From Candidatus Woesearchaeota archaeon (GTDB lineage Archaea; Nanobdellota; Nanobdellia; Woesearchaeales; GW2011-AR15): a stretch of DNA of 64,000 nt. The notes below the pieces were generated by a model. It was not told the origin of the DNA. It saw nothing but the letters and a program-made list of their open reading frames with translations, and ran no database searches. The position numbers and the translations under genes were made by a program. Below, in pieces: positions 16,187-64,000 of this stretch; positions within the stretch are counted from its first letter, which is position 1; each line of letters opens with the position of its first letter. The stretch is from positions 42,238 through 106,237 of the forward strand of contig JAVZBY010000002.1 of NCBI GenBank assembly GCA_038874655.1, in the 5' to 3' direction.

Positions 16187-16272
16187 TATAATACAAATAA
16201 AATACATTTATAATACAATTATACTACATCAAAACATTTAAATACTACATTTGTAATCTTTTTATAATACAA
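16187..16272 (+). repeat. Array of 10-bp direct repeats (consensus TAWAMTACAW) with 11-bp period, overlapping a TATA box
   Basis: TATAATACAA 16187, TAAAATACAT 16198, TATAATACAA 16209, TATACTACAT 16220, AATACTACAT 16241, TATAATACAA 16263; TTTAAATA at 16237-16244. Confidence 0.7.
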
Positions 16273-16379
16273 GTATAATATATGCTGTAAAAACTAACTC
16301 AGTATACAAAAAAATACAAAAGATATTACAGAAAAATCAAATCCTAATTAAAAATGAAAATAAAAAATTTAGAGCATAA

Positions 16380-16544
16380 ATGAAACAACAATCAAAAGAA
16401 ATTTCAATTTTAAATGTTAGATTGCCTGATGAAATTATTTCTTGGATAGATGAACTTGTCAAGAATGAAATTTTTAATTCAAGATCTGAAGCTATTAGAG
16501 AATTTTCCCGAGAATATGTCTTAAAAATGAGAGGTTTGAAATAA
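16380..16544 (+). CDS. Ribbon-helix-helix (CopG-family) protein, 54 aa
   Basis: Not in ORF track. Hand translation: MKQQSKEISILNVRLPDEIISWIDELVKNEIFNSRSEAIREFSREYVLKMRGLK. Confidence 0.9.
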   Translation: MKQQSKEISILNVRLPDEIISWIDELVKNEIFNSRSEAIREFSREYVLKMRGLK

Positions 16545-16565
16545 TTAAATAATAAAAAAAACAAA

Positions 16566-16829
16566 ATGCCTGACAAAATTATTTCAGTTAGAATGCCAAA
16601 GTCATTAATAAATGAATTAAAAGAATTAGCAGATAAAAATCATTATTTAGATGTTAGTGAAGAAGTCAGAGCATTACTTAGACAAAAATACTTAGAGCAT
16701 CAAGATCCTTATTCAATTAAATTAATGGCTATAAAAGAAAGCATTTCAAAACATGCGGTTCCTGAAAAAATAAAATCCTTGAAAGAAGACCTAAAAAAAC
16801 TATTGGAGGAATTAAATGCTTTACAATAA
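16566..16829 (+). CDS. Ribbon-helix-helix protein with C-terminal helical extension
   Basis: IISVRMPKSLINELKELA...DVSEEVRALLR. Confidence 0.85.
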   Translation: MPDKIISVRMPKSLINELKELADKNHYLDVSEEVRALLRQKYLEHQDPYSIKLMAIKESISKHAVPEKIKSLKEDLKKLLEELNALQ

Positions 16830-19800
16830 TTTTATTCAAAATAAAGCGAGAATTAAAAAAATTAAAATACATAAATATTCATGGTTATTATTTTTTGTTA
16901 TAATCCTAATTAGTAGTTTAACTACAAAATACTTTATTGATGCAAATGCACAAGAAATCAACCAAACAATAATTAATCAATCTATTAATCAAACAATTTT
17001 AAATTCAACATTAATAGTTTGGCACACTAACAATACTTTTGTTAATGAAACTATAATCTTTTACGCGTTATACAAAAACCAAACAAACCAACACATAACA
17101 ATATTAGATAATGCAACATGTATTATAGAAATTGAAAATCAAAAAAATTTAATGCAATTTGATCAGTCTAATAAAACTTATTTCATAGAAAAAACCTTTT
17201 TTGAAAATAAAACTTATAATTATAATATTAATTGCAATTCAACAAAATATCAATCCAAAGAATTTACAGATATTATTTTAATAAGGTTAAACAATTTATC
17301 AAATAACTATTTACCAAATAACTCGTTATTGAATTATTCAACAAATTTTTCATCTAATACTACACTATCAAACATAACAAATAATAGTTCTCAAAATATA
17401 TCTCAAAATTTAACTAATTTAATTGATTTGGATAATGATGGCTTTAATAATTCAATAGATTGTGATGACTTAAATCCAAACATAAACCCAGGAAAAAAAG
17501 AAATTCTTTATAATAATATTGATGATGATTGTAATATTTATACAAATGATTATTTAATTTTAAATTTAAATACAGACAAATCATTATATCAGCCAAATGA
17601 GGTTGTAAAAATAACTATAAACTCCATAAATTTCTCTGACACATATCTAACAATAAACACACCAACAAATATATCTTATGTTTATATCTTTACAAATAAA
17701 ACATACCCCTTAACTCATAATTTTTCATTAACACAATCTAGCGGAAGATATACTATAGAAGCGATAAACTATCTTGAAAATTATTCTATACAAAATTCAA
17801 TTGAATTTAATGTTACCTCAAACTTTAATGTTGATATTTTTGTTAATCAGACAGAAGCATATGAAAATGAAAAAATACACTTTAAAGCAATAATCACAGG
17901 GAACATAGGAAATGTTAATATGATATGGAAAATGGATGACAATAATGAAGTTTACCAAAGTGAATTTGATTATAATTACACATATGCTAGATTATATAAT
18001 GTTGTTTTAATAGCGACAGATCAAGGTGGAAATCAAATAGTAAAAACAAAGCAAATAGCAATAAACAAAAAATACTTTTTAAGAATAAAAGTTATTGATA
18101 ATTCTACAAATGAAATTATATCTAATGCTACAATTAGACTAGATACAATAACACAAAAAGTAAATTCAACAGGTGAATTTGAATTTTTTATAACAAATAA
18201 AACCTATAATATAAAAGTATTAGCAGATAACTATTATAGTTATGAAGACGATTTAAAAATTAATAATTCTTTATTATTTACTGTAAAATTAGTTAAGAAC
18301 TTAGATTATGTTATTCCAGAAATTTATTTATTAAGCCCACAAAATAATACAGAAATAACCTCAACTAATAATCTTGAAATAAAATTCAAATTTAATGATA
18401 ACTCAAATGCAGATTGTTCATTATTAATTTCAAATGGAGATCAATGGTGGCAAGAATATCAAACATTATATAATTTATCTTCAAATTCAGAATACTTATT
18501 TAAACTAAATTTATCTGATCTTTCAGATATTAATGATAAATTAATCTATAAACTAAAATGTATTGATGATGATGAAAACATAGCATATACCCAAAATTAT
18601 TTTTTAAATATTTTAAACAATCAAAAGTTAAATCAAGAAAATAATGTAGAAATAACACAAACATCTTCCAATGATACAGAACAAGAAACAACTTATCAAG
18701 TCATAGAAAACATATATAGTGTGATTCCAGATTTTGACACTTATAGTCCAGATGACAAGAAAATAGTTGAATACTTAGACATGGAAACTTTAATTAAAGA
18801 TGCAAAAAGAAAACTTGAAATGGCTAACAGAGATCTATTTAATTTAAGATATAAACCTGACACAGAATCAATATTACAAGCAAGAGATGAAATCTATCAA
18901 AGAATAGAAAAAATAAAAGATGAAACTCCTTTATCTGTAAGCACGAAGAAAAAAGTAAACTTTGTTAAATACGTAGATGAAAACGAAATTGAAAATTACT
19001 TTGAAGAATATATAAAACTAAAAAACTTAAACATAGATAAAAATCTAAAAAAGAAATTAATAGAACAAAACAAACTTCTGCAGAAAAAATCAACTATTGA
19101 AACAACAGCATACAATGTAGAAATTAAATATATTTCTGGCAGAATACAAGATATTACTTTATTAGTAAGGAATATTGATTCAGATTTATTATCAAATCTA
19201 AATTTAGTTGAATTTGTTCCAAAAGATATAGAAGAGACAACTGACAACATGGTTTTTATAACCCAAGCACAAATATTAAATAAAGATCCTGTAATTGAAT
19301 ATGATTTATCAAAATTAAATGAGATTGTTTATTATTTTAAAGAATCTATTTCATTAGATGATTTACCTAAAATAAAACCTTTATTGATAACAACAAAATT
19401 AGATGAAACCTCAAACAAAATAACAGGATTTGCTATATTTGATAATCTTGGTTTTTCAGAAACAAACAAAAAAATATTCATAATTGAATTAATAATTATT
19501 TTTATCTTGTTAGGAATTTATTTATACTTCTATTTCACAAATAGAGAAACAATTGTTATAACAAATAATAATGATAAAAATAGTAATAAAAATCAAAACA
19601 ATGAATTCCAAGCATATACAAAAGATATGTCAAAACATTACTTAAATGTTAGACAATATGAATTTACTAATGAGAGCATATCAAAAGAAAATTCCCAAAT
19701 AAATAAATTCTCACAAGCAAAAACTTTTGTAGATAATGAAAAAGTAAATTACATTTTTTCAGTTTTATCAAAAGCAGAGCATGACATCTCTAATAAGCAA

Positions 19801-20133
19801 ATAAAAAATGCAGCTTTAAAATATCATGAACTTAAATTTTTATATGAATTATTAAACAAAAAAGACCAAAAAATCATTAAACCCTATTTGATAAACTTAA
19901 TTGACAAAATAACACTTTATCATATTAATGAATTGCATGACTTAGCTATTTATGAATTAACTATGGGCAATCTAGAAAATGCTCTAAATTATTATAATGA
20001 AATAGAACAAGAATATGAAAAACTATCAGAAAAATCAAAAGATAAAATTTTTGGAAAATGCTGCCAATTAGCAATTTTAATAAAAAATAATTCACTAAAT
20101 AATTCATTATTTATAAAAAACACTCAAAAATAA
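16816..20133 (+). CDS. Large single-pass surface glycoprotein (Ca-binding DxDxDG/MopE-like repeat, MG2-like, PKD, carboxypeptidase-regulatory-like Ig domains; TPR-like cytoplasmic tail)
   Basis: Signal peptide, dense N-x-S/T sequons, DLDNDGF..DCDD..INPG..DDDC, TDKSLYQPNE, TM at about aa 890-910, duplicated A..Y.E...YE.L tail. Confidence 0.8.
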   Translation: MLYNNFIQNKARIKKIKIHKYSWLLFFVIILISSLTTKYFIDANAQEINQTIINQSINQTILNSTLIVWHTNNTFVNETIIFYALYKNQTNQHITILDNATCIIEIENQKNLMQFDQSNKTYFIEKTFFENKTYNYNINCNSTKYQSKEFTDIILIRLNNLSNNYLPNNSLLNYSTNFSSNTTLSNITNNSSQNISQNLTNLIDLDNDGFNNSIDCDDLNPNINPGKKEILYNNIDDDCNIYTNDYLILNLNTDKSLYQPNEVVKITINSINFSDTYLTINTPTNISYVYIFTNKTYPLTHNFSLTQSSGRYTIEAINYLENYSIQNSIEFNVTSNFNVDIFVNQTEAYENEKIHFKAIITGNIGNVNMIWKMDDNNEVYQSEFDYNYTYARLYNVVLIATDQGGNQIVKTKQIAINKKYFLRIKVIDNSTNEIISNATIRLDTITQKVNSTGEFEFFITNKTYNIKVLADNYYSYEDDLKINNSLLFTVKLVKNLDYVIPEIYLLSPQNNTEITSTNNLEIKFKFNDNSNADCSLLISNGDQWWQEYQTLYNLSSNSEYLFKLNLSDLSDINDKLIYKLKCIDDDENIAYTQNYFLNILNNQKLNQENNVEITQTSSNDTEQETTYQVIENIYSVIPDFDTYSPDDKKIVEYLDMETLIKDAKRKLEMANRDLFNLRYKPDTESILQARDEIYQRIEKIKDETPLSVSTKKKVNFVKYVDENEIENYFEEYIKLKNLNIDKNLKKKLIEQNKLLQKKSTIETTAYNVEIKYISGRIQDITLLVRNIDSDLLSNLNLVEFVPKDIEETTDNMVFITQAQILNKDPVIEYDLSKLNEIVYYFKESISLDDLPKIKPLLITTKLDETSNKITGFAIFDNLGFSETNKKIFIIELIIIFILLGIYLYFYFTNRETIVITNNNDKNSNKNQNNEFQAYTKDMSKHYLNVRQYEFTNESISKENSQINKFSQAKTFVDNEKVNYIFSVLSKAEHDISNKQIKNAALKYHELKFLYELLNKKDQKIIKPYLINLIDKITLYHINELHDLAIYELTMGNLENALNYYNEIEQEYEKLSEKSKDKIFGKCCQLAILIKNNSLNNSLFIKNTQK

Positions 20134-20134
20134 A

Positions 20135-23100
20135 ATGTTTAAAAAGATAAAAAAAGAACTAAAAAAAGAGGAAAATAATAAAAATAAGGATAAAAATAGT
20201 GGCATATTTAGATTCATGTATAAATTTAAAAAAATAGATTTTGCTAAACTTAACTTAAATATAGAGATTATTCTTTCAAATTTATTAATTATTTTACTAA
20301 TTGTTATTGCTATAATTTCTTTACTAATTTTAAGAGATTTTATAGGATATGTTCCTGGCTATAATCAAGCTCAAGGTGGTAGAATTACAGAATTAAACAT
20401 ATATCAAGTTTATCCTGCAAGTATATGGAATGGTGTATATGGAATTGCATTACAAGCGCCTGTATTTAATACATCTTGGTTTATTTATGCAAATCCAGCA
20501 GGTATGTCTGAAATAAATCCTATTTATCCTTGTTTTGAGCCAGAGATTGAACATGAATTGTATGCAACCACTTTAAGCCCTTCACAAATAGTCTGGGAAA
20601 ATATTACAGCAGCAACACCACAAATGTTAGATGATTATGTGGGTATTTCTTATAATGAATCCATGTCAGCAACGAAAAATTTCATTTATACAATGACTGT
20701 TGATATTGGAACAAGAACAATTCCAAATGTTCCTACAATGTATTTAAGGCAATATGATAATCCAGGTAGCAGAGAATTTCCAGTAGGTATTTTACAATAT
20801 AATGGAAATATTATTATGGTTTCAAAAATAAACCCAAGTTATTTAACAGGCTATAGACCAGATAAAATCTTTAATTTTGAAATGATTGTTCCAGTTCCAA
20901 TTAATACAACTAATTTGAAATATAATTTATATGTTGATCCTTTTGATTACTGTCCTCAAGGAGAGGCAGGAGAGAAAAAAATTCCAAGTAATATTCAAGG
21001 TTATGTTAGAGATAATCAAACACAGCAATTATTAGAAAATGCATTGGTTGCAATAGGAACAAGAATTTATATTACTGGGCCAGATGGAATTTACAATATT
21101 ACTAACATACAACCAGGTAATTATTATATTGTAGCCATAAAAACAGGATTTAATAATTTTGTTTCTAATGTAACTATTCCAGAAAACACAACTATAGAAT
21201 ATAATATTAGTATGGAACTTTATCAAGAGCCATTAACAGGAACAGGCCCAGGAATTGGAACAGGGATTGGCCCTGGACAAGATGCACCAGGAACACAAAC
21301 AAAATCAGGTGAAGGTCCTGGAATTGGTCCAGGTATTGGTCCTGGAATTGGGCCTTTTATTGAAAAACCACAAGAATTTGGAATTGATCACTGGCTTTCT
21401 TTAGATAAATTAAAAAAGAAAATCAAGATTGGATATTTCTTTACAGATAATTTATTAATATTTAGTTTCAGAAAAGAAACAGCAAAAATACAAATAAAAA
21501 TTACAGGAAATGCATCAAAAATTTTAGAATTAAGTGATACACAAGCAACAATAGAACAAAATAAATATGCTAATATTACAATTAGAGGGTTTGGTTTAGA
21601 AAAAGGTGTTTATACTGGATTTTTAGAATTATCTGGAGATTTTAATGATACTTTGCCAATAGAAATAACAGTTACAGATGAAGAAAAATTACCTATTGAA
21701 GCAATGTTGATGCAATTAGATGTTTTAACAAAGCATCCATTAATGGGAAATAAGTTTAAATTTAGAGTGAATCTACAGAATTTATTAATAGAAGATTCTT
21801 ATAATGTAAGATTAGACTATTATATTAGAGGGGTTGAAGCAGAAACTTCTAATTATTCAATGTATGTTGGCAATGATACTTTAACATTGTTTACTTCAGA
21901 ATCAATAATAAAGGAAACATTTATTCCACCAGATTGGTCAAAAGGTGAATACTATTTAATTGTTGAAGCAAATTATTTAGATTTAAATGCAAGAACTTCT
22001 ACAATTTTTGAAGTTTATGAACCTATCTATAAATATAAAGTATTAGGTAAATTAGAATTGTGGAAATTATTATTAGCTTTATTGATTTTAGCTTTGTTAA
22101 TAATTATTATTTTATTGATTAGGCATAGAATTAATGCAACTAAAAGGTTCCATGCAAAAGTTGAATATAACCTATTGCCAAAAAAAGGTCCAAGATCTTT
22201 GTATGTAGGAAAAATTGCAGAAACAGAAATAGATACTTATTTTGATATGGATAAATTAACTGTTCATACTATTATAGCAGGTTCTACTGGAGGTGGTAAA
22301 TCTATTTCAGCACAAGTGATTGTAGAAGAATGTCTATTAAAAGGAGTTGCTGTTGTTGTTTTTGATCCTACAGCACAATGGACAGGAATGCTTAGAAAAT
22401 GTACAGATGAAAAAATGCTATCCTTTTACCCAAGATTCCATATGACTAAAAAAGATGCTCGTGCATTTAATGGAAACATCAGAGCAATAAAAAATCCTAG
22501 AGAAAAAATAGATTTAATGAAATATTGGAAACCTGGCGAAATCCAAGTATTCACTACAAGTACATTAGATCCAAAAGATATGGATATTTTTGTAGCTAAT
22601 ACAGTTAGAGAAGTATTCCATTCAAATTTACAAGAATACAGAGGATTAAGAATGTTAATGGTTTACGATGAAGTTCATAGATTATTGCCCAAATTTGGTG
22701 GCTCAGGTGAAGGTTTTGTCCAAATTGAAAGAGCATGTAGAGAATTTAGAAAATGGGGTATTGGTGTAATGCTAGTTTCACAAGTTTTAGCAGACTTCGT
22801 TGGACAAATTAAAGCTAACATTAACACAGAAATTCAAATGAAAACCAGGGATGAAGGTGATTTGCAAAGAATTGAAACAAAATACGGCAAAAGCTACATT
22901 CAAGAGTTAGTTAAAGCACCAGTAGGAAGTGGTATGGTGCAAAATTCTGATTGGAACAGAGGTAAACCCTATTATGTTACATTTAGACCAATTATGCACA
23001 GTGTAGTAAGATTAACAGATCAAGAATTAGAACAATACAATAAATATAATGAAATTGTTGATGATTTATCATATCAATTAGAACAATTAGAACAAGAAGG

Positions 23101-23794: not shown

Positions 23795-23850
23795 TAAATA
23801 AATACATAAAAAATTAATAAATCAATATTTAATAATATTATTAATAAAAA

Positions 23851-24747: not shown

Positions 24748-24927
24748 ACTATATTAAACATATATATGAAACAAACTAATAGTAATCATTTATGAATAAA
24801 AAAATAAAAAAGAAAAAATTATAAAGAAAAAAAATAAAATCTTATACATTAAAATAGCATTCAAATAAAATCAAGAATAATAAAAAAATTACAACCAAAA
24901 AATCAAATTTCACAAAAGAGGAAAAAA

Positions 24928-25983: not shown

Positions 25984-26049
25984 CTAAAAAATTAAAACTA
26001 AAAAACTTTAGAAAACTATTCCAAATAATAAAATAAAAGAGGTGTTCAA

Positions 26050-26595: not shown

Positions 26596-26793
26596 TTATT
26601 CTATCTTATTATCATTATTAGAAGGTGATTCACCTTTCCCTTTTTCTCTATAAAGCAATCTTACAGCATACTTTATTACATCTGTTCTTGATGTAAAATC
26701 TCCATTACTTTCTTTAACTAACTCGTCTATCTTTTTTGTTAGTCCTTCTGGAATTTTAATTGTATCATATTTAGTTCCTGTTTTTTTTCTCAT
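26596..26793 (-). CDS. Ribbon-helix-helix protein
   Basis: YDTIKIPEGLTKKIDELV...FTSRTDVIKYAVR; GGTGAG RBS. Confidence 0.88.
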   Translation of the reverse strand: MRKKTGTKYDTIKIPEGLTKKIDELVKESNGDFTSRTDVIKYAVRLLYREKGKGESPSNNDNKIE

Positions 26794-57500: not shown

Positions 57501-59957
57501 AATGAATTAAATGTTTCATTTACACAAGGCATACATACAATAAAAATTAGAGTTAATGACACTTATTATTACTTAGGAAACACATTACAAAGAATAAAAG
57601 ATTCATTGCCCATAATTTTATACATTGATACAACTCCACCAACAATTACATTTAATACATTTAATTTAACATGGTTTAATTCAGAGCCAATAATAAACTT
57701 CACTATAACAGATAATTTAGATAATTTAATTAATTATATAATTTATATAAATAATAATCCAGTTACATCTGGATCAGCAAATTCAAGCCCACAAAACATA
57801 ACAATATATAATTTACAAAATGGAACTTATGAAATCTATATAGAAGCATTTGACGAAGCACTTAATTATAGAAATTCCTCTGTATTAACAATTTATCTAG
57901 ATACTGTAAAGCCAACAATCTACTTATTGGCACCTCAAAATGGAATCTCTTTATTAGCTAATTATACAACCTTTAATTTTTCAGTAATTGATAATTTAGA
58001 CACATTATTACAATGTAATTTAACAATTGATGCTAAAGTGAATGTTTCAAACATATATGCTTATAATAATTCTATAAATAGCACAGCTGTTTATAATTTA
58101 AGAGAAGGCACTCATTATTGGAATGTTAGTTGTTGGGATGGCAACTTAATAACACCTGTAAGTTTAATAAACACTTCAGAAACATATTACTTCAATGTAT
58201 ATAATCCACCTATAATAAAGCTAATACAACCAGAAAACAACAATTGGACAAATAACCCAGAAGTTATTTTCTTCTTTAATGTTAGTGAGGAAACAGGATT
58301 GCAAAACTGCTCTATTTTATTAAATGGAATTATTCAAAATACAAAACAAGGTAATTTACTTAATAAAAATGGTTTAAATAATATAACTTTAACAAACTTA
58401 AATGGCACATATTCTTGGCAAATTGAGTGTTATGATAATACAACAATTTATAATTATGCAATCTCAGAATCAAGAACTTTAAATGTTGATTTAGATGCAC
58501 CGATTCCTTATATAGAAACATTAAATAATACTTGGTTTAATTATAATAATCCCTTAATCTATTTTAATATATCTGATAACATGGCTTCAATAATTAATTA
58601 TACTTTTTATGTGAATTCAACACAAAACAGACAAGGCAGTGTAAATAATGCAACATCCACATCTATTAATTTAAATCCAATTCAAGATGGTTATTATTTA
58701 TTAACATTAGAGGCATTTGACTATGCTTACAATAGAAGAAATAGTTCCTCTATAACAATTTTTGTTGATACAACTAAACCAACAATAAGTTTATTATCTC
58801 CAATTAATGGATTCAGCACATCAGATACAAATATATTGTTTAACTTTACATCATTAGATAATTTAGCAAAAACAATGATATGTAATTTAACAGTTGACAA
58901 TCAAATTATTAAATCATTCAACACGACATCAGGGTTATCTAATTACACTTATTTAAATATGGCAGCAGGTATTCATTATTGGAATGTATCCTGTTCAGAT
59001 TTAGTTGGTAATTTCAATACAAGTGAAACATATTACTTTATAATCCCATTGCCTGATTTATATGTATCAGCAGATTATATCCTCTTTAATACAACAGCAC
59101 CAGAAGAAAATACAAATATAACTATAAATGCAACAATCTTTAATATAGGAAACACAACTGCATACAATGTTACAATACAATTCTGGGATGGTCACTATTT
59201 AAATGGAACACAAATTAATGGAAATTTTACATATAATATTTCAGCAGGCCAAAACATAACTATTAATTTATCATGGAAAGTAAGTTCTGTAGGAGACCAC
59301 TTTATCTATGTTATAGCTGATCCACCCTTACAAACAAATGGAACGATTAAAGAATCTAATGAAACAAATAATTATGCATATAAACTTATAATTGTTGGTA
59401 GTTATACATATATTTATGGTAATTTCTCAGGATTCCTAAATTTAAAGGACTTAAACAATATAACTGTCTATCAATGGGATATTAATGATTTAAACGGTTC
59501 AAAAATATTTGCTGTTGATTATGATAGTATTATAGATTGGCAGAAATTACAAGCAATCTCTAGAGATATTTATAATAACTATGTGTCTAATGACTTTTAT
59601 GAAATAGATTTAGCATTAAGAATGGAAAATAACTCTGATTCTATAAATAAAACATGGATCTATAATAATAATCCTTATTACACAAAAAATTATAATGTTT
59701 TCCTCAATAATATACAAAATATTCCTTTTATTAACTCAACAAATACTACAAATTTCCAAACAGGTATTTTATGGGATTACTCTGATGGAAACACGCAATA
59801 TAATGGGACACAGGATTTAGTATTTTTTACAATTGTTAATATAAATCAAACAGGAATACATGGAAAATATGACTACGAATTAAGAGTTCCAGCAAACTTA
59901 AGATATTATAAACAACCAAATATAGCTACAATTGCATTATATACAGAATTAAAATAA
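45567..59957 (+). CDS. Giant (4796 aa) secreted adhesin-like surface glycoprotein
   Basis: Signal peptide; MG2-like domains; four CxGGEC..DP scaffold modules with inserts; about 16 Ig-like P.I.L..P...W...C.D repeats; two CARDB domains; no C-terminal TM. Confidence 0.9.
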   Translation: MNSEKNYPKFVSLFLIILIIVISIVIINAQNLLENNYIKINKKEFFLGETVEIELLINDLNNINIDLYTPNAIYKYPFPSKIIKYKPILEGNYRLVVLKNKEILTTTTFFVKKNEYNLIEEILNQSTIKNNEETENLLDINKPNLITDKETYLLNQEVIISINNLSIDDLSNYNLIINSSNTIINYIDLKSNTIKFFPKKQGIYTLILISKKSNEEIAKKEISVNSFNQQFNNEISLNYDNKTNSINNNIDNQKEIMINQSIEYSDNLFNNSKNIEQLNRQYNNLPFKIKNSKNYFLIANITISNKRLKNLSLDTFSFINLSDDLYDIEIQPNIRQIRKIKLHNVSFKGNFDLGLEEIDSQATKFKDIKKAIAIDPSKINFTNGFIEINATSDVLLKCKDWNFTEQKCFGKFELIKTLNKGQTYFIDINSTDPAYYELGLASINTNKSLYKENETAQIWIVALDYTGHLISNANITLQIISPNNEIFIFSTDSNISQIELGIYELNFTTKEQGNYTIFANVYSNLINTTLFSFFSVVDYYEFEIIRKSPLTTDPWRDTFTTKLKIISNNHNGLFNLTEKIPIGFEIIETDAIITNDSNYYYLTWNNLQNNSEVNYTALAPFITPAVYEFKSFVSYEMNNQSLIFNEAKPWFLAVDPIMYTQVCQAQINSVGQNTFGSACDGVYPSSCSATGDLLTCNDNFFETHTGTNTNRWAGVRISAYDSTIRDCVSITRVELCYEWWRDIGFSNARIAVDRNNWASPTTVTTTLPGTTANPGVTCADVTSLEAWTCDNFDGTGQAAQAVAQAQRDNSGSTRTLYIDVLFFNVTYLRDYPPNITQNRPPSYYYNDTFSPINITFNCSAVDDIRVSNISLYITNLNNNSFALNQSCNILATSGSCQWTLLLPSGNYTWNCLAYDNRTQGTWGTNRTIIINYTMPPTPKINSYSCEINTLNNWQPCNTIAYGNTILRVRANCTTDSGLITNTTFLLYNLPDNIYLLNGTSTTQTSGYYIYDNPDLQITDSGYFNLSVQCFNSFNKNQTNTTAWNLAWGTLSSQLIYPFEPISVPQNSTFNFTSRLTCLGGECGDVNATLDPIYIVLFNHTFETGLEDFIWLDDIYGTNQPTQSEGYVTNRIFCPNGFCLFGDLHTVNNSNTGPWSGGFNKTFNLTSYTYGLKANITVNITFDYNLIIDQTTEAGEYVYLYYRNITSKTSVQGPNIQGSGAGGTDEVFENVSGRISLIFYNVSDVFSFDVGCYMTDTNANDEDGGCFIDNILIQATVELNKGKISNIPGTKPFWTLSPNPYTEANLACLRNMIAGQSCNTTWVVNATGPLYTTWDFFVLYEPTEYSSYLSFNKSKSVNITITDMVRPVITFVQCQRNSTSWVSCDSIKYNEYISGVRGTCTYTEGIITSMSFNLKNQFYNRTYFDVSTTDNSTNYWTSTFSPIRVNNSGNFALYSRCYANSLFGDYSLNWSLPYGTIYISWINLSSEVNVTQNKFSNFSVLLTCQGGECINISAFIDPEIGQQFALMTFDGSTNFPLRDGLCNTATDTCALSNPWDDFDNCIAGNGQYGICASRYAGSGGTERGLLCQGCDRNNAGNTGGLYISLNSTPCGGYPCQYIFISYYQAVQSMDAANEGSVVLVRDNDGIWREVSRCIDNDLCDCDRIAGCTLATIGQYAQYVNVNLCDIPGIDCTQPLDIFFTSYATNVNQGTGDYFMWDQINITGYLPKGIISYGSGSPFYTTYANPVYRQNNSCLAYLDVGQSCIITWPVNATGNLNSLHEFYVNATTFNNQTTQSSIIDVRITDNKLPYVSFITLNPINPTSYDNLNCSFIINDANYFDKLYANITWYRNDIVYSNQMISINNNQLTSVILSSSNTNNGEVWHCGITPYDETVYGNQLNSTKVNILISQPPIISNVQCQRNSTSWVSCSDIKFNDILTMVRAQCIDLDGYVMNVTFNLTNFEDKYLFFKNTTYMPESGYYYFNNTDILIRDSGNFNLSVSCIDDTNVETVYYLTWLVPFGKLKGQWLNPPNINVNVTRYKLSNFSVRIICEGGECGNITAVLDPLILYPQANMDFESPTNFPLATGQCGTGAGWQCADSSPWDDFDNCIGGNGVYGICASTEANSGETGIRGLECRGCDRADALNQGGLYINIPARSCNDYVCEQINISFYQIVQSMDNANEGSAVLVRDEDGIWRNLTTCMDNQPRCDCDVIPGCTRAEMGAYAQFFKKDLCQVPGINCSQNISILFTSYNLINHGTDDYFAWDKILVEKYGQKGIIPVGSGFPFYVIENNPRTWNDFSCLYNMTSGDSCEITWQVNATGNYNKTHEFFAYFNSTYSAIELNETKHIYVTITDNFPPRVTYVEIGPEVALNDTDIYCSFIITDPNYFDSLWANITWYRNKTFYFNQQVPISINTLTQVYLLANNTEPGEYWHCGVTPFDGSIYGNQVNSTNLTIYLYPPPSINSIQCNVNGLWKDCKNILYFTNFSAIRTNCSSNEGMVNATFNFTNIPDNKVFFNNLTTTYSNGYFIFDFEDINITDSGEMEIYAKCIDNVNQVVYGKVNWTILWGTLTASLVYPDSDTSVQRNNFFTFQARVTCSGGECGNINATLDPYTNSTIYDFKQGYNIDKFAWVIDSNNNPPESLPNSRTALTLAQVALINVSDNNRYTMPDPGAGDWISLDMIMNIKEKREDITKMQFYFEGYPNIASTLQIYAWNFNTNTWNSLGTQSFSTGSDQIMTVNITSNILNYINASNNNIRWLLLNTLTSEYILVDYVYVNITYNAYKGIIPRQEGAIPFYTRDYNPKDYTNQSCLGNMISGQSCIASWLVNATGPLGSTHEFFVYFNATNYSQYIMPKETTHIFITITDSTLVPPIVILNDPQDNLYTNNQNIIFNCSVTDNFNLKNISLVADFNGIFDINETYQITGTSNTSLFYKYLDDGKYIWNCLAYDSDNNLDWGNSNRTLTIDTKEPTIILNNPLNESSFTTTNLALNFTVIDALDKILNCDLYLNGFLYQQNINANNNSNTIINLINLTPNTYKWFITCIDDATNMNVSEEYIFYISDLPPSVSLLTPNNIYFRTPNISLFYFATDNLNINLSTLILNGYPFAYQYNLGTSVISSFNLTYMPEGLYNWTVNVSDSSNLTDQAPYRYFTIDYTEPIIYIYAPDNNLTINETQTRINFTVVDNLDFMIMCNLTINNQIAQTNIPAINNSFVSYLITNFYDGLNYWNLTCFDDAGNYITSETRILNVSAPPNVVLNYPFNNHFQNQQNITLYYTPQDNVNLSVCELFINGQYNQSNIEITNGVQNTFELTSLSENIYSWSVRCNDTSNLSTMSETRIFTIDLTKPTIYLLYPNNGDTIYGKWTNFNFSVIDNFDINLSCNITVDGLIRKSNLPVLNNTPTNFTINVSDEGPHTWYITCIDDATNFNVSETRNYFTTNPPEVQLVFPNNGAIINYNLINFTYIPIDDNLASATLILNGLRNETNTTLYNELENYFRIYLTDGIYNWTVNVTDATNLYTMPDVLTFTIDSTPPLITIHHPAGFEILDWNNITFNFTVSDNLFQPIYCNISINSVPQFTNIPVNNNSNVIRYYSLNDGTHSWQVRCIDLTNNTAIQTQNFIVEAPPRVNLINPVNQTRTTQQSFNFQYLPYDVFGLYNCTLILDNKLNESSSSILNNQINTLFVSYIPEGLHNWTVRCIDNPPDYNSYQPEPWQFRIDLTGPTIILKYPMQDQTFNLNNITFNYTAIDSDNIIIDCNISVSDPYGNRLNATSMPAGYDHIITITNLADGDHYWNVTCVDDLGNVNTSETRRFIINQPDLFTNNNLVFLNNINPDLYENITISINVSNIGGQPANNVLVNFYDGNPNLGGLFIGNDTNSVAINQTIAFTTSWLITPGYHTIYISVDPYNQISELDETNNNATINISVLWANITNPKNQSWFNTLIVPINFTAYDYTGNSITYIVLIDNTPNGQNGYVIDSINNELNVSFTQGIHTIKIRVNDTYYYLGNTLQRIKDSLPIILYIDTTPPTITFNTFNLTWFNSEPIINFTITDNLDNLINYIIYINNNPVTSGSANSSPQNITIYNLQNGTYEIYIEAFDEALNYRNSSVLTIYLDTVKPTIYLLAPQNGISLLANYTTFNFSVIDNLDTLLQCNLTIDAKVNVSNIYAYNNSINSTAVYNLREGTHYWNVSCWDGNLITPVSLINTSETYYFNVYNPPIIKLIQPENNNWTNNPEVIFFFNVSEETGLQNCSILLNGIIQNTKQGNLLNKNGLNNITLTNLNGTYSWQIECYDNTTIYNYAISESRTLNVDLDAPIPYIETLNNTWFNYNNPLIYFNISDNMASIINYTFYVNSTQNRQGSVNNATSTSINLNPIQDGYYLLTLEAFDYAYNRRNSSSITIFVDTTKPTISLLSPINGFSTSDTNILFNFTSLDNLAKTMICNLTVDNQIIKSFNTTSGLSNYTYLNMAAGIHYWNVSCSDLVGNFNTSETYYFIIPLPDLYVSADYILFNTTAPEENTNITINATIFNIGNTTAYNVTIQFWDGHYLNGTQINGNFTYNISAGQNITINLSWKVSSVGDHFIYVIADPPLQTNGTIKESNETNNYAYKLIIVGSYTYIYGNFSGFLNLKDLNNITVYQWDINDLNGSKIFAVDYDSIIDWQKLQAISRDIYNNYVSNDFYEIDLALRMENNSDSINKTWIYNNNPYYTKNYNVFLNNIQNIPFINSTNTTNFQTGILWDYSDGNTQYNGTQDLVFFTIVNINQTGIHGKYDYELRVPANLRYYKQPNIATIALYTELK

Positions 59958-59978
59958 AAATTTAAAATAAAAACTAAA

Positions 59979-61841
59979 ATGAAAAATAAAAACATAATAA
60001 GAATTACTTTATTTTTATTTGTTTTAATATTATTTAGTTTTATTATTGTTATTTATATTGCAAAAGCACAATGTCAATTAAAAGAAATTCCGTTTTTTGA
60101 ATTAAATGAAGGGGACATTTTTAATTATACTTTAAATTTTGTAAATCAAAACATTTCTGAAAAAGGATTATCAGAAATTAAAATTTCACTTATAAAGATA
60201 AATTCTTCAATAAATCCTGTGATTAAAAATAATCTAATTAATTTTAAAGCAGATCAAAACTCAGGAAACAAAAATTCGTTTTTAATTGTTTCAACAATGG
60301 AAAATGGGTGCTATGATGTTAAGAAATTTGATTTTTTTGTTTATTTAAAACCTAAAATTATGGAAAAAAACCCAATAGAGGATTATTTAGAAATTTATGA
60401 GACACAATCAATAAAATTTTATGCTTCAGCATATTCTTTTTATGATACTGATGTAAAAACAGAGTGGTATTTAAATGGAATTAAACAAAAAGAGAGTTCT
60501 AATTCTTATATCTTTTTCACAAATTATAGTTCAAAAGGATTATTCACATTAGAATATGTTGCAAAAGATAAAAGGCAAAACACAACAATAAAATGGTTAA
60601 TAAATGTAAAAGATAAAAATAGAAAACCTATTTTAAGATTTAATATTCCTGACTTTGTTTTAACAAATTATACAAGAGGAAGATTATTGAATTTAAATGA
60701 TTACTTTCAAGATCCAGATTTAGACAAATTAAAATTTGAATTAGTTTATTTTGATAAAATTAATAATTCTATTAAAGAAAAGTCCTATGAAATTTTTAAT
60801 TTTAGTATTAAAGATAATGGTGATTTTGAAGTTTATCCAATTAAAAACATTTATTTAACAGAATATCTTAAAGTAATTGCTTATGATTTTCAAGGAGAAA
60901 AAGCAGAAAGCAATATTTTCTTTATGAAATTAGTTAATTCAGATAATATAAGTTATATCTTTCTAAATACTTCAAAAAAAGAACAATGTAAACCAAATAT
61001 ACAATGTACAGAATGGAGTCCATGTTTGATTACAAACATTAGAACAAGAGAATGTTTTGATGTAAATAATTGTAATTCAGAGAACACTACAATTACAGAA
61101 ACAATGCATTGTGATTATAATGCTACTTGTAATGATGGAATTTTGAATCAAGGTGAAGAAAAAGTTGATTGTGGTGGCCCATGTGAACCCTGTCCAACTT
61201 GTGATGATGGTATTTTAAATCAAGGTGAAGAAAAGGTTGATTGCGGCGGTCCTTGTCAAGCTTGCGAAAATTGTTATGATGGTATAAAAAATCAAAATGA
61301 AATATTTACCGATTGCGGTGGTCTATGTAAAAGTTGTTTATTATTAGATATTATTAACTTCATAAAAAGTTATTATTATTTAGCATTTATATTTATATTT
61401 TTATTAATTATAAAAATCTATTCAAAAAACATTAGTAGTTCTGATAAAATAAAAAATTATATCTTTTATTCAAAACTATTTAATTTTTTACCTAAAAAAA
61501 TTCCAGAAAATTATAAAGAGATTTTTACTCAAACAATTTCAGATTTAACAAGCATAAAAAATGATATTTTAAATCTTGAAGATAAAGAAAAAATAAAAGA
61601 GAAATTTTATAATATTATAGATAACTTTTACAAAAATTTTTTAGAATTAGATCTTGTAAATAATATTACTGTAAAAAATTCTTCAAAAAAAATAATAAAT
61701 CCCTTTTTAAGAGAATTAATCTTGTTATTGTATTATGATACAAGAGATATTTCAGTTGAATCACCTTTTTATAGAATTGAGTTAAATGAAAAAATAGATC
61801 AAACAATTGCAATATTAAATAAGATTAGGGATTTATTATGA
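59979..61841 (+). CDS. Single-pass surface protein with Ig-like domains and Cys-rich repeats
   Basis: Signal peptide, LNDYFQDPD.DKL cadherin-like motif, CTEWSPC..RTREC, three C.DGI.NQ.E...DCGG.C repeats, TM, cytoplasmic tail. Confidence 0.82.
   Translation: MKNKNIIRITLFLFVLILFSFIIVIYIAKAQCQLKEIPFFELNEGDIFNYTLNFVNQNISEKGLSEIKISLIKINSSINPVIKNNLINFKADQNSGNKNSFLIVSTMENGCYDVKKFDFFVYLKPKIMEKNPIEDYLEIYETQSIKFYASAYSFYDTDVKTEWYLNGIKQKESSNSYIFFTNYSSKGLFTLEYVAKDKRQNTTIKWLINVKDKNRKPILRFNIPDFVLTNYTRGRLLNLNDYFQDPDLDKLKFELVYFDKINNSIKEKSYEIFNFSIKDNGDFEVYPIKNIYLTEYLKVIAYDFQGEKAESNIFFMKLVNSDNISYIFLNTSKKEQCKPNIQCTEWSPCLITNIRTRECFDVNNCNSENTTITETMHCDYNATCNDGILNQGEEKVDCGGPCEPCPTCDDGILNQGEEKVDCGGPCQACENCYDGIKNQNEIFTDCGGLCKSCLLLDIINFIKSYYYLAFIFIFLLIIKIYSKNISSSDKIKNYIFYSKLFNFLPKKIPENYKEIFTQTISDLTSIKNDILNLEDKEKIKEKFYNIIDNFYKNFLELDLVNNITVKNSSKKIINPFLRELILLLYYDTRDISVESPFYRIELNEKIDQTIAILNKIRDLL
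61128..61337 (+). repeat. Three 72-nt coding tandem repeats (CxDGIxNQxExxxDCGGxCxxC)
   Basis: Units start at 61128, 61200 and 61272; the first two are near-identical in protein with mostly synonymous DNA differences. Confidence 0.9.
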
Positions 61842-64000
61842 AAAAATATAATGACATTACTAATAAAATTAAAATAAAAATATTAAAAAAAATATTGCAA
61901 TTAATTTTTAGGTTATACTTTAGATTATACTTATTTATTTCATGTTTTATATTATTTATATTATTTTTTAATCCTGTCTTTTCACAAGAATTAAATTTTT
62001 CACTAGAATTAAATAAAGTCAATTTTTTTCTTAATGAACCTGTAATTATAAATTTAGAAGAGGATTATTATAAATTAAATAACACAAATTCATTTGATAA
62101 TTTAACATTAAAAATAATATCCCCAAACCATTATTATAATTATTTAGGAGGTCTAGATAAAAGATTAATTTTTCAACCAAATGAAATTGGTAAGCATTAT
62201 ATAGAATTATATTTTAATAATGAGCTGGTAAAAAAATTAGAATTTATTGTTTTTGAAACCAATTCTCAAGTTTCTGAGAATTCTTCTGTTTTAAATAACT
62301 TAAATATATCGCGAAACAATATATATAATAATGTTTCTGAAAATCAAACAGAAATTATGATTATTCAAAATTCAAATTTTTCAACAAAACAATCGAATAT
62401 AAAATTATTAGATATCATAAAAATTAATGTAAAACAAAATTATTCTTTAGATGAAAATGTTTTTATCACACTAACAAAAAATGAACAAACTCTTTATGCA
62501 ATAAATCCAAGAGAAGACATCAATTTTTCAAAATTAATAATACATTCAAATAAAGATTATGTTTATGAAAATCCAAAAAATAAAATAATTTTTAAACCTT
62601 CTGAACTTGGTAAACATGAAATTATTTTATATGATACTTTTGATAATGAAGTAGCAAGAGCATCATTTAATGTTATAGAAAATAAAAAATTTATTATTAA
62701 AGATAGTAAGGGGAAAAAAATAGATGCAACATTTCAATACAAAGATAAAATAAAAAAAAATATTTCTGAATTAATTTCTGAAATTAAAAATGAAAAAAAT
62801 CAAAAAATAGAATTAACAGTTTTACCTAATCTAAAAAATATAAAAAAAATTACTTTTAAAGATATAAACCTAGAAAATAGTTTTGATTTTTATCTAGAAG
62901 ATCTTGATACATTTAATTTAGAAAGAAGTTTCATAAAAGCATATGCAATTAATCCTGAAAATTTAGATTTCTCAGAAGCAATTTTAACAAGCATAAGTCA
63001 AGGAAAAACACTTTATAAGTGTGCAGAATGGAATTTTCAAGAACAAAAATGTTATGGTATTTGGAAAAAAATAATGTCTTTAGTTCCTGGACAAGAATAT
63101 AATGTTATTATAACAAAAAATGACCCTGCATATGCAGAAAGTAATGAACTTATTGAACCTAAACCTGTAAGTGGTTTTGTTTTTATGTCAGATAATACAA
63201 GAGCAAATAATGGTATTCCAGTAAGAATTTTTAATAAAGCAAATGGTGAAAGTGTTTTAACACAGGTTTATGCACCACCAATTCCAATATATAAAGGAGC
63301 TTATTCTGCTAATATTTATGGAATAACTGGAGATTCTATTGTTGTAAGAGCATGGAATTCTACACATTATGGCGAAACAAATGCAACTTTATTAGCAACA
63401 ACAACTTATGTTAATATAACAATTCAATATTTTAAAGGAAGTGAACCCAATGTTTCAATAATTTATCCATTAAATAATTCAATTTTTTATTTAGGTCAAA
63501 ATTTTAATATAACTGCAAAAGTTCAAATATTAAATAACAATGCAGAAAAGTGTTATGCTTCTTTTATTAGCACATTAGCTGAACCAATAACAGGGCAAAG
63601 TAATACAATTTTTTTAGGAGACATAATGCAAAATAATGAAATTACTTTTATGTTTAATTTAACTGCAATAAAAGGCGGCTATGAAAAATTAATTGTTAAT
63701 GTTTCTTGTTCAACAGATACAATTCTAGATGGCTTAAATATAGCAAGAGTAAATTTAACTTTTATTGATAATGTTAAACCAGAGATAACAATATTTAAAC
63801 CTCTAAATAATGAAGAATCATTAAATCCTATTAAGTTTATATTTAATGTTTCAGATCATACGGGCATAAAAAACTGCTCATTAATTTTTAATGGTAATTT
63901 AAATCAGACAATTTTTAATCCACAAATGTATATTTTACATTCTTTTAATTTAACCTTGCAAGCAGGAACATATAATTATAACATTGATTGTTATGATAAT
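61838..64000 (+). CDS. Second large surface protein, paralogous N-terminus to the giant adhesin; runs off window end
   Basis: Not in ORF track. ATG at 61838 overlaps the previous TGA (ATGA) and the frame appears open to 64000. Signal peptide; contains KAYAINPENLDF...LYKCAEWNFQEQKCYG...NDPAYAE. Confidence 0.88.
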   Translation, partial: MKKYNDITNKIKIKILKKILQLIFRLYFRLYLFISCFILFILFFNPVFSQELNFSLELNKVNFFLNEPVIINLEEDYYKLNNTNSFDNLTLKIISPNHYYNYLGGLDKRLIFQPNEIGKHYIELYFNNELVKKLEFIVFETNSQVSENSSVLNNLNISRNNIYNNVSENQTEIMIIQNSNFSTKQSNIKLLDIIKINVKQNYSLDENVFITLTKNEQTLYAINPREDINFSKLIIHSNKDYVYENPKNKIIFKPSELGKHEIILYDTFDNEVARASFNVIENKKFIIKDSKGKKIDATFQYKDKIKKNISELISEIKNEKNQKIELTVLPNLKNIKKITFKDINLENSFDFYLEDLDTFNLERSFIKAYAINPENLDFSEAILTSISQGKTLYKCAEWNFQEQKCYGIWKKIMSLVPGQEYNVIITKNDPAYAESNELIEPKPVSGFVFMSDNTRANNGIPVRIFNKANGESVLTQVYAPPIPIYKGAYSANIYGITGDSIVVRAWNSTHYGETNATLLATTTYVNITIQYFKGSEPNVSIIYPLNNSIFYLGQNFNITAKVQILNNNAEKCYASFISTLAEPITGQSNTIFLGDIMQNNEITFMFNLTAIKGGYEKLIVNVSCSTDTILDGLNIARVNLTFIDNVKPEITIFKPLNNEESLNPIKFIFNVSDHTGIKNCSLIFNGNLNQTIFNPQMYILHSFNLTLQAGTYNYNIDCYDN

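Follow-up and report, generated by a model that had tools for sequence, protein, structure and literature searches.

A conserved operon around a membrane-spanning HerA-type ATPase in a Woesearchaeal genome: a probable split SPEARE-type system

How DPANN archaea attach to and draw on their hosts is an open question, for which the giant SPEARE proteins are the main candidates. As far as the main text of their first description goes, these are mostly extracellular proteins with a transmembrane helix towards the C-terminus and a conserved cytoplasmic part that was read as a type III restriction enzyme, and similar sequences were noted in Woesearchaeota, Aenigmarchaeota, Micrarchaeota and Altiarchaeales (PMC6642349). 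Fig. S17 and Table S3 of the supplementary information (SI) to that paper by Hamm et al. list Woesearchaeota matches, and these may name relatives of the proteins treated here (PMC6642349). In the main text of a later paper the cytoplasmic part is re-read as a VirB4/TraG-like ATPase plus a coiled coil, a 'straw' resembling a type IV secretion system (T4SS) is proposed, a second ATPase gene with a VirB4 N-terminal domain is reported downstream, beside the nanohaloarchaeal giants, and the serine protease is disputed as a general SPEARE feature (PMC10266531). Both main texts give SPEARE proteins a role in host contact, and their extracellular part has been detected by proteomics (PMC6642349, PMC10266531). 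The present analysis concerns a stretch of 64,000 nucleotides (nt) from the genome of a Woesearchaeal archaeon (hereafter the window), in which an ATPase of this kind is encoded by a gene of modest size within a compact operon at 16380-26589.

This operon is a genuine conserved system, best read as a split SPEARE form, whose fixed partners are recognised here for the first time, along with a domain that may serve for docking. The explanation that is favoured here, and held with moderate confidence, is that it constitutes the split Woesearchaeal form of the DPANN SPEARE-type system, with the ATPase working as a ring-shaped motor. What is new is the fixed coiled-coil partner, as well as a DUF5752-like unit that occurs on the ATPase, on tails of surface proteins and on KaiC-like ATPases; the SPEARE architecture itself is already known. 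The SPEARE giants, with their 3000-12000 amino acids (aa), are too large for easy study, and the locus presents the same motor small and split. An earlier note on this DNA, made from its letters alone, had described the 48 kb up to the window end as a single undescribed machine with its own signalling hub. The word 'undescribed' has to be given up, the architecture being that of the SPEARE or giant membrane-anchored type of DPANN as laid out in the main texts of the two papers (PMC6642349, PMC10266531), and so does the single machine, as the modules differ in their distribution and the middle 16 kb are missing in a relative of the same genus.

The genome (1.26 Mb in 17 contigs, rated 97% complete) belongs to a tiny archaeon that probably depends on a host. 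Its placement among DPANN, as assumed in the earlier note, is reasonable, since close homologues are labelled Woesearchaeota, Nanoarchaeota and Pacearchaeota. The window is very low in G+C (15-31% in 2-kb steps), and its open reading frame (ORF) map holds 25 genes from 16380 to 64000, 21 of which lie on the plus strand, closely packed into three arrays of one direction (16380-26589, 27417-43287, and from 44943 up to the window end), while four short minus-strand genes stand between the arrays; the strand bias and tight spacing described in the earlier note are therefore real. Coordinates are in window numbering, and labels in C, L, G and P stand for own contigs, loci, relative genomes and proteins, respectively. 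The first array, in which the six genes from the first ribbon-helix-helix (RHH) gene to the coiled-coil gene are spaced by 21, -14, 1, 56 and 180 nt, reads as follows.

16380 to 16544, plus strand: RHH protein of 54 aa, gene 1 of the core operon (Pfam RHH_1, 3.3e-6)
16566 to 16829, plus strand: RHH protein of 87 aa, overlapping the next gene by 14 nt (Pfam RHH_1, 2.5e-4)
16816 to 20133, plus strand: type-I surface protein of 1105 aa (hydropathy, Pfam)
20135 to 23794, plus strand: bitopic ATPase of 1219 aa, assigned to the HerA clade (Pfam, hydropathy, alignment)
21362 to 23332, plus strand: SPEARE-type module within the ATPase gene, residues 410-1066 (homologue search)
23851 to 24747, plus strand: cytoplasmic 298-aa protein with an N-terminal DUF5752-like unit (repeat comparison, Atlas model)
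24928 to 25983, plus strand: coiled-coil partner of 351 aa with a C-terminal amphipathic stretch (co-occurrence, adjacency)
26050 to 26589, plus strand: membrane protein of 179 aa with a C-terminal coil, which ends the core array (hydropathy)

The ATPase and its relation to SPEARE proteins and other FtsK-HerA systems

By hydropathy (with no topology predictor), the 1219-aa protein has a first transmembrane helix at residues 45-63 and a second at 644-662, which enclose an extracellular part of 580 residues (64-643) that consists of a CarboxypepD_reg domain (287-361), a Gly/Pro linker and a membrane-proximal domain (410-640). On the cytoplasmic side follow the ATPase domain (about 680-1025), a helical stretch and a DUF5752-like unit (1083-1159). 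The ATPase domain matches DUF87/HerA of Pfam at 4.6e-12 (47 bits versus a cut-off of 23.2) as well as HerA_C (26.2 bits versus 22), and its Walker A motif (AGSTGGGKS) and Walker B region (VYDEVHR) hold invariant residues across 24 aligned sequences, so that the trans-membrane HerA-type ATPase seen in the earlier note stands, with the second helix placed directly ahead of the ATPase. Full-length orthologues occur in 17 of the 19 genomes of the family. The cytoplasmic half of this protein could be expressed alone, which makes it a first experimental handle on the system. The 1105-aa protein encoded upstream has (again by hydropathy) a signal or anchor, an extracellular part of about 860 aa, a transmembrane helix at 887-905 and a cytoplasmic tail of about 200 aa; a MopE motif lies above the Pfam cut-off, and PKD and Ig-like matches are weak. 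The membrane-proximal domain of the ATPase was undetected in this or any other protein of the window. The Gly/Pro linker (window about 21230-21360) is built of repeated GPGIGP units.

The membrane-proximal domain, the transmembrane helix and the ATPase together make up a module (residues 410-1066) that, used as the query of an exhaustive search, found 393 cluster representatives at E<=1e-30, always with the match near the C-terminus, in proteins that range from about 500 aa (many of them partial) up to 6253 aa. Among proteins of 2135-5000 aa there are 259 matches at E<=0.001, the best 120 of which show 45-60% identity over the ATPase, and their source labels comprise Woese-, Pace-, Micr- and Aenigmatarchaeota, Nanohaloarchaea/Nanosalina and Hadarchaeales. 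Three giants labelled Nanohaloarchaea or Nanosalina are 46-57% identical over the ATPase, and a 3306-aa protein of Ca. Nanosalina sp. VS9-1 aligns its last 540 residues with residues 491-1026 of the window protein (38% identity over 550 aa, E 5e-112), which spans the extracellular domain, the transmembrane helix and the ATPase; homology was thus tested on nanohaloarchaeal giants from the searches and not on the SPEARE proteins named in the papers. In relatives from other families the ATPase match falls within open frames whose lengths run from 3903 to 15811 aa, and the giant frames that were inspected end in the module (3903, 5222, 8155 and 9862 aa, with two further ones of 5479 and 6457 aa cut by contig ends). 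Because the module is fused to giant surface proteins in other lineages, it is tied to the cell surface.

The likeness to SPEARE proteins thus lies in the same order of parts, i.e. an extracellular part, a membrane-proximal domain, one transmembrane helix, a cytoplasmic P-loop ATPase and a helical end, and extends to short versions, of 655 and 717 aa in the main text of the first description (PMC6642349) and of about 700-850 aa here. The differences are equally clear. The window ATPase has 1219 aa with an extracellular part of 580 aa, while the 4796-aa adhesin of the window is a separate protein encoded 21 kb away, without a C-terminal transmembrane anchor or an ATPase of its own. The window ATPase also ends in a DUF5752-like unit that is absent from 130 of 130 giants, has no second ATPase gene adjoining it, and shares the window with no protein that matches a peptidase family (Pfam). 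The main texts of the SPEARE papers are silent on a coiled-coil gene, a 1105-aa partner, an RHH pair and a DUF5752-like unit (PMC6642349, PMC10266531), and a literature search returned no work on this system beyond the SPEARE papers and none on DUF87 in Woesearchaeota or on DUF5752. One giant homologue from a public metagenome (P0296, 4192 aa) carries an N-terminal Peptidase_S8 domain (1.1e-31) besides the ATPase and a C-terminal DUF835, so that some family members do have the serine protease of the SPEARE name.

The ATPase domain is 62-88% identical among the 120 proteins listed, whereas the extracellular parts vary freely. A FastTree phylogeny was made of 151 ATPase domains (the window protein plus 150 random rows of the 273 that cover the domain, out of 342 ATPase-bearing proteins), on which the label 'giant' changes 16 times, at least 12 of these changes being forced by starred branches; size classes are blurred by partial database proteins and no direction of change was drawn. 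So many changes of label point to repeated gain or loss, and on this tree the extracellular part is seen as gained or lost many times.

That the ATPase is simply a cytoplasmic HerA of DNA repair or anti-virus defence, next to unrelated surface genes, is highly improbable. Its best named matches are the HerA models of such systems (the PADLOC HerA model at 8e-15, with Walker A and B intact), and RHH proteins are common in defence and toxin-antitoxin loci, but the protein is bitopic with an extracellular part of 580 aa, and many lineages have its module fused to extracellular giants. There is also no nuclease, Sir2 or other effector in the conserved neighbourhood, nothing reaches the cut-off for NurA anywhere in the genome (the sole weak match lies on another contig), and for roles of this kind the genome has further soluble DUF87 proteins at other places. 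From HerA proper, the window ATPase differs in its membrane anchor and extracellular domain, in having no NurA or effector partner, in its low scores against the HerA equivalog models of NCBIfam (34 and 27 bits versus cut-offs of 800-970), and in the N-terminal HerA barrel, which was undetected in it. A defence system as such was tried and dropped, PADLOC having given generic HerA and mad8 matches only and no effector.

Membrane-tethered cytoplasmic ring ATPases with one or two transmembrane helices are well known from transport systems (VirD4/TrwB, VirB4, the archaeal Ced DNA-import ATPase, and EssC/EccC of the type VII secretion system (T7SS)), and some of them associate with large surface proteins. 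With these the window ATPase shares the FtsK-HerA superfamily, to which VirB4 and VirD4 both belong, and it has weak P-loop matches to TraD, TraC, CedD, IcmO and TrwB; transmembrane helices followed by a cytoplasmic ATPase moreover resemble the topology of coupling proteins. The similarity is, however, confined to the P-loop, no defining partner family was found, and in place of a short loop there is an extracellular domain of hundreds to thousands of residues.

It is from such similarities that a T4SS could be proposed, in which a VirB4/TraG-like ATPase would serve a surface protein that acts as an effector-injecting 'straw', which is how the later paper reads the nanohaloarchaeal giants (PMC10266531). 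The second ATPase gene with a VirB4 N-terminal domain reported there would fit this, as would tandem ATPase genes in three relatives (G049, G052 and G060). For the system in the window we nevertheless regard a T4SS as distinctly unlikely. A profile built from 24 members finds HerA first among solved structures (3e-10 to 5e-7), well ahead of IcmO (2e-3) and of TrwB and FtsK (0.07), and the VirB4 match of the single ATPase sequence has an E-value of 0.96. In the whole genome there is no match to the VirB4 N-terminal domain PF03135 (which the same search did find in the control Caulobacter) or to TrbL/VirB6 PF04610, and T4SS-DNA_transf PF02534 reaches 16.8 bits, below its cut-off, on a different protein (both were found in control genomes), although such profiles may miss divergent archaeal forms. 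The neighbourhood of the ATPase in 25 loci shows no conserved gene for a pilin-like protein or a polytopic channel (without a pilin-directed search, and profiles find short pilins poorly), and no second ATPase gene adjoins it in the window. With HerA ranking first in Pfam, in NCBIfam, in PADLOC and among solved structures, and with no T4SS family found above its cut-off in this genome, the sequence evidence argues that the ATPase domain belongs to the HerA clade and that the system is not to be filed as a T4SS. Two published labels are thereby corrected as far as this genome's version goes, which is no restriction enzyme and has no T4SS parts at its side. How the restriction-enzyme reading first arose would be explained by ResIII matches, which are precomputed in Pfam for many giants and occur weakly on P0296 and on a soluble paralogue of the window ATPase. 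The earlier note was also right that no type IV filament, archaellum or T4SS family is matched inside the window (Pfam); T2SSE ATPases of type IV filaments are present elsewhere in the genome.

In G049, G052 and G060 the tandem consists of a giant fused gene (8155, 9862 and at least 6457 aa, respectively), followed by a short gene of the same family (670-731 aa), with a 712-aa ORF between the two in G052; the arrangement matches that reported for nanohaloarchaea in the main text of the later paper (PMC10266531). The soluble paralogue mentioned above (349 aa, L068:8423-9472, plus strand, contig C5) consists of the ATPase only, without transmembrane helix or extracellular part, is 42% identical to residues 662-1022 and lies among genes for an ArsP permease, an MFS protein and a P-type ATPase. 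Three more DUF87 proteins, of 697, 524 and 452 aa, are encoded on contigs C1 and C3, and the same P-loop stretch occurs in frames of about 655-700 aa in many relatives, which could be orthologues of such a DUF87 protein.

Conservation of the core and its coiled-coil partner

To follow synteny, the surroundings of the ATPase orthologue (14-40 kb) in 10 same-family genomes were searched with the proteins of all 25 genes; two of these stretches stop early at contig ends. The two RHH genes, the 1105-aa gene and the ATPase gene are collinear in all 10, and the genes for the 298-aa protein and the coiled coil continue the row in 9 (the exception being G008), while the 179-aa protein that closes the array is found in 4. 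The upstream neighbour of the core, a 377-aa ORF on the minus strand, is kept in 1 of the 10, and therefore it is the block that has been preserved and not its surroundings. The earlier note had made its case depend on conserved synteny, which for the core is indeed present, in 9 to 10 of the 10 relatives. Homologues of both RHH proteins also occur in G057, which belongs to another family, with the 54-aa one again upstream of the ATPase.

Outside the family, a match to the coiled-coil gene lies beside the ATPase in 9 of 14 loci (tblastn). When 396 ORFs from 25 loci were clustered, three families turned out to be widely shared, namely the ATPase in 23 loci (not counting 2 giants that a length rule excluded), the coiled coil in 20 and the 1105-aa type in 14. 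A homologue of the latter stands directly upstream of the ATPase in 14 of the 25 loci.

The association between ATPase and coiled coil also holds at the level of whole genomes. The 60 relatives that were searched come from 42 families; a strong ATPase match (best E<=1e-100) is present in 30 of them, while the other 30 reach at best 1.7e-17, through generic parts. The family profile of the coiled coil finds 28 genomes, all of them among the 30 carriers of the ATPase (0 of the 30 others), and the two carriers that it misses are G052 and G060, in each of which a weaker ORF of coiled-coil type adjoins the ATPase. The two genes lie on one contig, at a distance of at most 3 kb, in 23 of the 28, in four they are on different contigs, and in G053 a fused gene of 5222 aa has the coiled-coil gene close to its other end. 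A second sample consisted of 150 high-quality genomes from the phylum, and here both genes are found in 28 (adjacent in 21 of these), the ATPase profile alone in 4, the coiled coil alone in 2 and neither in 116; this sample overlaps the set of 60, and because of kinship among the genomes no statistic is given. Carriers are spread over some twenty family codes.

The family of the coiled-coil protein has neither a consistent Pfam annotation nor a name that is informative, and its named matches come from Woesearchaeota, Nanoarchaeota and unclassified archaea. No Pfam family exceeds its cut-off, NCBIfam returns generic SMC- or Rad50-like coil noise only, a profile search of solved structures gives nothing meaningful (best E 0.034, to unrelated helical proteins), and in the Atlas it falls into unnamed archaeal clusters only, none named at 0.9 or above and none with a template-modelling (TM) score of 0.5 or above. 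The earlier note had called it membrane-targeted, for which the only basis is the amphipathic stretch at its C-terminus (KKGFFAKLFGKK). As a protein of 351 aa that tracks the ATPase across samples (all within one phylum), it is a second handle on the system.

The DUF5752-like unit and the proposed mechanism

A unit of about 78 aa, with the motif HVN..KNDF[SA].W, occurs three times in the window, as the earlier note had seen: on the ATPase (1083-1159), on the 298-aa protein (5-82) and on the 1480-aa surface protein (1394-1473). The genome has nine copies, among which one on a 357-aa protein 2 kb past the window and one on a 1061-aa type-I surface protein that is encoded beside a second giant (3840 aa) 20 kb past the window. 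In the loci of relatives the unit is found once or twice on the ATPase, on small adjoining proteins and on surface proteins of 1300-1740 aa, and in G010 and G017 it stands at the N-terminus of KaiC-like ATPases. A relation to DUF5752 (PF19027) is suggested by two other copies in the genome that exceed the cut-off of 23 bits (27.2 and 26.8 bits, compared to 18 bits for the copy on the 298-aa protein), by precomputed PF19027 matches on many ATPase orthologues, and by the Atlas model of residues 1-93 of the 298-aa protein, which resembles DUF5752 clusters (TM scores by row of 0.75 and 0.67). Since each copy spans about half of the 208 positions of the DUF5752 model, the unit looks like one of two repeats. 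Within the 342 ATPase-bearing proteins, 101 of the 212 non-giants carry it and none of the 130 giants does. As a possible plug that joins ATPases to the tails of surface proteins, this 78-aa unit is the third handle.

Taken together with the superfamily, these patterns suggest how the system could work. Six ATPase chains would form a ring under the membrane, as FtsK-HerA relatives lead one to expect, and the coiled-coil protein, judging from the gene pattern, would be a constant subunit of the complex and keep the ring at the membrane, on which it may lie by means of its amphipathic C-terminal stretch. The DUF5752-like units would serve to dock the ring onto the tails of surface proteins that have genes of their own; such docking would replace the covalent fusion seen in the giants, and the unit would be unneeded wherever the surface protein is fused. 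Where the surface proteins hold another cell, the ring would then drive a polymer through the membrane of the archaeon itself, at the expense of ATP. As to the nature of this polymer, DNA is a tentative choice of low probability, slightly favoured because HerA-clade enzymes act on DNA and because two RHH proteins, of a DNA-binding type, head the operon. Export of protein is somewhat less probable, and a role without any transport has odds close to those of DNA. A more far-reaching version, which we consider unlikely, is that the ATPase, the coiled coil as its obligatory partner and the DUF5752-like unit form a distinct trans-envelope machine of archaea (neither a T4SS nor a type IV filament system nor a T7SS), whose docking unit, small and homotypic, would recruit both HerA-clade and KaiC-like rings of the RecA fold to the cytoplasmic tails of interchangeable giants, and whose ring would pull in host DNA, or another polymer, where the cells touch.

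Without transport, the ring and the coiled coil would be a cytoplasmic hub that clusters, assembles, tensions or releases adhesins via their tails, i.e. an inside-out control of adhesion, with the KaiC-like ATPases as further regulators. In either wording, as hub or as adhesion control, this seems unlikely, even though several observations suit it: the DUF5752-like unit is common to the ATPase, the KaiC-like ATPases and the tails of surface proteins, it sits on non-giant ATPase proteins only, two families have pairs of a KaiC and a 1480-aa gene next to the ATPase, the neighbourhood shows no conserved channel partner, and HerA rings do act as scaffolds in some defence systems. Against it, those FtsK-HerA proteins that are well characterised pass DNA or protein through their ring, and the conservation of the ATPase domain next to variable extracellular parts is what one would expect of a catalytic motor with a fixed substrate.

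The split SPEARE-type motor, which remains the preferred explanation, has a number of points against it as well. Ring formation, ATP hydrolysis, docking and transport are all predicted from sequence. No substrate is evident, a ring would offer only 6 to 12 transmembrane helices as a channel, and the clustering of the 25 loci yielded no conserved polytopic membrane protein beside the ATPase. None of the 342 ATPase-bearing proteins is fused to the coiled coil, and in G008 the coiled-coil gene (together with the winged-helix gene treated below) lies on another contig than the ATPase. The contrast between non-giants and giants in the occurrence of the DUF5752-like unit may reflect ancestry, the non-giants being mostly close relatives and many database proteins partial, and the two RHH proteins, seen with the split form only, may do no more than regulate the operon. 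Furthermore, the system is patchy (32 of the 150 genomes of the phylum) and both genes are missing from two near-complete genomes of the same family, G014 (97% complete) and G016 (one contig, 96%), so that the way of life of the lineage does not depend on it. With homologues labelled Hadarchaeales, it is not confined to DPANN either.

Neighbouring modules and the wider surface-protein island

The remaining 38 kb consist of three neighbouring modules that recur beside the core but are optional: a KaiC gene paired with the 1480-aa gene, a two-component sensor set, and a winged-helix gene followed by the 4796-aa adhesin and its paralogues. Their genes, together with the short ones between the arrays, are the following.

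26596 to 26793, minus strand: RHH protein of 65 aa (RHH_1 3.9e-3, below cut-off; in 2 of 10 relatives)
26993 to 27142, minus strand: ORF of 49 aa, earlier called RHH (no family match; 1 of 10 relatives)
27417 to 27644, plus strand: ORF of 75 aa, earlier called RHH, ahead of the KaiC gene (no family match; kept in G010, G013 and G006)
27671 to 28507, plus strand: single-domain KaiC-like ATPase of 278 aa (Pfam KaiC 1.1e-49)
28518 to 32960, plus strand: type-I surface protein of 1480 aa (hydropathy, repeat comparison)
32994 to 34667, plus strand: single-pass protein of 557 aa (no family match; in 0 of 10 relatives' stretches)
34744 to 36561, plus strand: cytoplasmic PAS/GAF protein of 605 aa with an RELKM coil at its end (Pfam)
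36590 to 37444, plus strand: anchored solute-binding protein (SBP) of 284 aa, SBP_bac_3 (Pfam)
37449 to 38288, plus strand: two-helix membrane protein of 279 aa with an RELKM coil at its end (hydropathy)
38269 to 42084, plus strand: sensor histidine kinase of 1271 aa with two SBP_bac_3 extracellular domains, HisKA and HATPase_c (Pfam)
42211 to 42621, plus strand: stand-alone response-regulator receiver of 136 aa (Pfam; 4 of 10 relatives)
42757 to 43287, plus strand: degenerate KaiC/RecA-like protein of 176 aa without Walker A (weak Pfam)
43343 to 44128, minus strand: polytopic membrane protein of 261 aa (no family match; 1 of 10 relatives)
44207 to 44437, minus strand: ORF of 76 aa (no family match; 1 of 10 relatives)
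44943 to 45527, plus strand: putative winged-helix regulator of 194 aa, directly ahead of the giant (weak HTH_24, HVO_A0114)
45567 to 59957, plus strand: giant secreted adhesin-like protein of 4796 aa (CARDB 1.2e-22, Big_13 1.5e-14, hydropathy)
59979 to 61841, plus strand: single-pass surface protein of 620 aa (hydropathy; 1 of 10 relatives)
61838 to 64000, plus strand, cut by the window end: surface protein, paralogous to parts of the giant, with a full length of 917 aa in the contig (Big_7)

By hydropathy, seven large proteins of the window have an N-terminal signal or anchor (1105, 1219, 1480, 557, 4796, 620 and at least 720 aa), and five of these, all except the 4796-aa protein and the one truncated at the window end, also have a second helix with a cytoplasmic tail after it. 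Among the five RHH proteins claimed in the earlier note, three match RHH_1 and the two of 49 and 75 aa match nothing. The window has no tRNA, and no integrase or transposase family is matched among the genes from 16380 onward (Pfam), which leaves a mobile-element reading unsupported. A scan for promoters and terminators gave 81 sites versus 96.7 expected, with a bacterial consensus that is uninformative for an archaeon.

In the first module, the 278-aa protein is a clear single-domain KaiC (PF06745, 169 bits versus 26.6), although it stays below the cut-off of every KaiC or ArlH model of NCBIfam. While this resembles ArlH-type KaiC proteins, it differs from them in being paired with a 1480-aa surface protein and not with archaellum genes. 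Orthologues (64-68% identity) occur in 3 of the 10 relatives, and the pair stands beside the ATPase in G010, G013 and G006, as well as twice in G042 of another family, the 1480-aa homologues next to the KaiC genes being full-length in all four. The 1480-aa protein has a transmembrane helix at 1140-1158 and a tail of 320 aa that ends in the DUF5752-like unit. Of the 'KaiC-like proteins' of the earlier note, the 278-aa protein is a strong case and the 176-aa one a weak and degenerate case, the latter having KaiC (4.2e-5), DUF835 and DUF7504 matches that are all below cut-off and, by eye, no Walker A; it occurs in 3 of the 10 relatives, in G042 and in G057. A link between this 176-aa protein and the DUF835 end of P0296 was dropped (best E 1.6).

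The two-component set was recognised correctly from the start, with HisKA at 1.4e-19, HATPase_c at 3e-30 and Response_reg at 8.6e-28 (Pfam), besides PAS/GAF and SBP_bac_3. The kinase core is present in 5 of the 10 relatives' stretches, and the set as a whole is syntenic within the family only. The pair of winged-helix gene and giant is kept in seven genomes (G002, G010, G004, G009, G013, G006 and G024). The giant has an N-terminal anchor only, with no C-terminal transmembrane helix or ATPase, and gives long alignments to relatives. It has two regions in common with the last gene of the window (E 5e-19 and 2e-9), so that the second large paralogue of the earlier note is real.

That all 48 kb form one co-regulated contact organelle with a dedicated signalling hub is very doubtful. 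Nearly all modules do follow in the same order in G010, G013 and G006, the DUF5752-like unit joins the core to the 1480-aa protein, a coil that is common to the 179-aa core protein and the sensor-like proteins hints at contact between core and sensor, and the winged-helix gene and the giant come directly after the core in G002 and G024. In G002, however, which belongs to the same genus, this is so for want of the whole KaiC/1480-aa/two-component block (the middle 16 kb), and the synteny of the two-component genes with the core, being restricted to the family, is explained by shared ancestry. The 557-aa and SBP genes are found in 0 of the 10 relatives' stretches, and the winged-helix gene, present in 15 of the 19 genomes of the family, also occurs in 6 genomes without a strong ATPase match. 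Finally, surface genes run on for about 40 kb past the window, which makes the boundary at 64000 an arbitrary one. The region is thus a surface-protein island around a fixed core, continuing past the window end.

The continuation of this island (L066 and L067 on contig C2, which reach from 2 kb ahead of the window end to some 40 kb past it) holds many signal-bearing ORFs, among which the 3840-aa giant (MG2, Big_7) and a 738-aa He_PIG protein. A C-terminal domain of about 180 aa is common to the giant of the window (4612-4795), the 917-aa protein (43% identity) and a 253-aa protein (27%), at window 59397-59954, L066:2290-2826 and L066:18379-19137 (minus strand), respectively; it may be a shared end by which proteins with no C-terminal transmembrane helix are sorted or anchored.

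Two short repeats complete the picture. A coil of about 35 aa (INRELKMIELK...) ends the PAS/GAF and 279-aa proteins and, as a variant, the 179-aa core protein (E 2e-4 versus the coil of the 279-aa protein), at window 36493-36561, 38217-38288 and 26527-26589; the threefold RELKM of the earlier note is exact in two copies, the third reading REQKM. The coil is like a stretch of the kinase before HisKA (about 41130-41320) and might let these proteins pair with the signalling helix of the kinase. The Q.DY..S..Y motif, claimed three times, has no occurrence in its strict form, whereas the looser Q.?DY(3-8)S(2-4)Y occurs three times in two proteins against 0.2 expected from shuffles. These sites lie in cytoplasmic parts, 30-100 residues past the transmembrane helix, twice in the 1480-aa protein (window 32070-32290) and once in the 557-aa protein (34551-34600).

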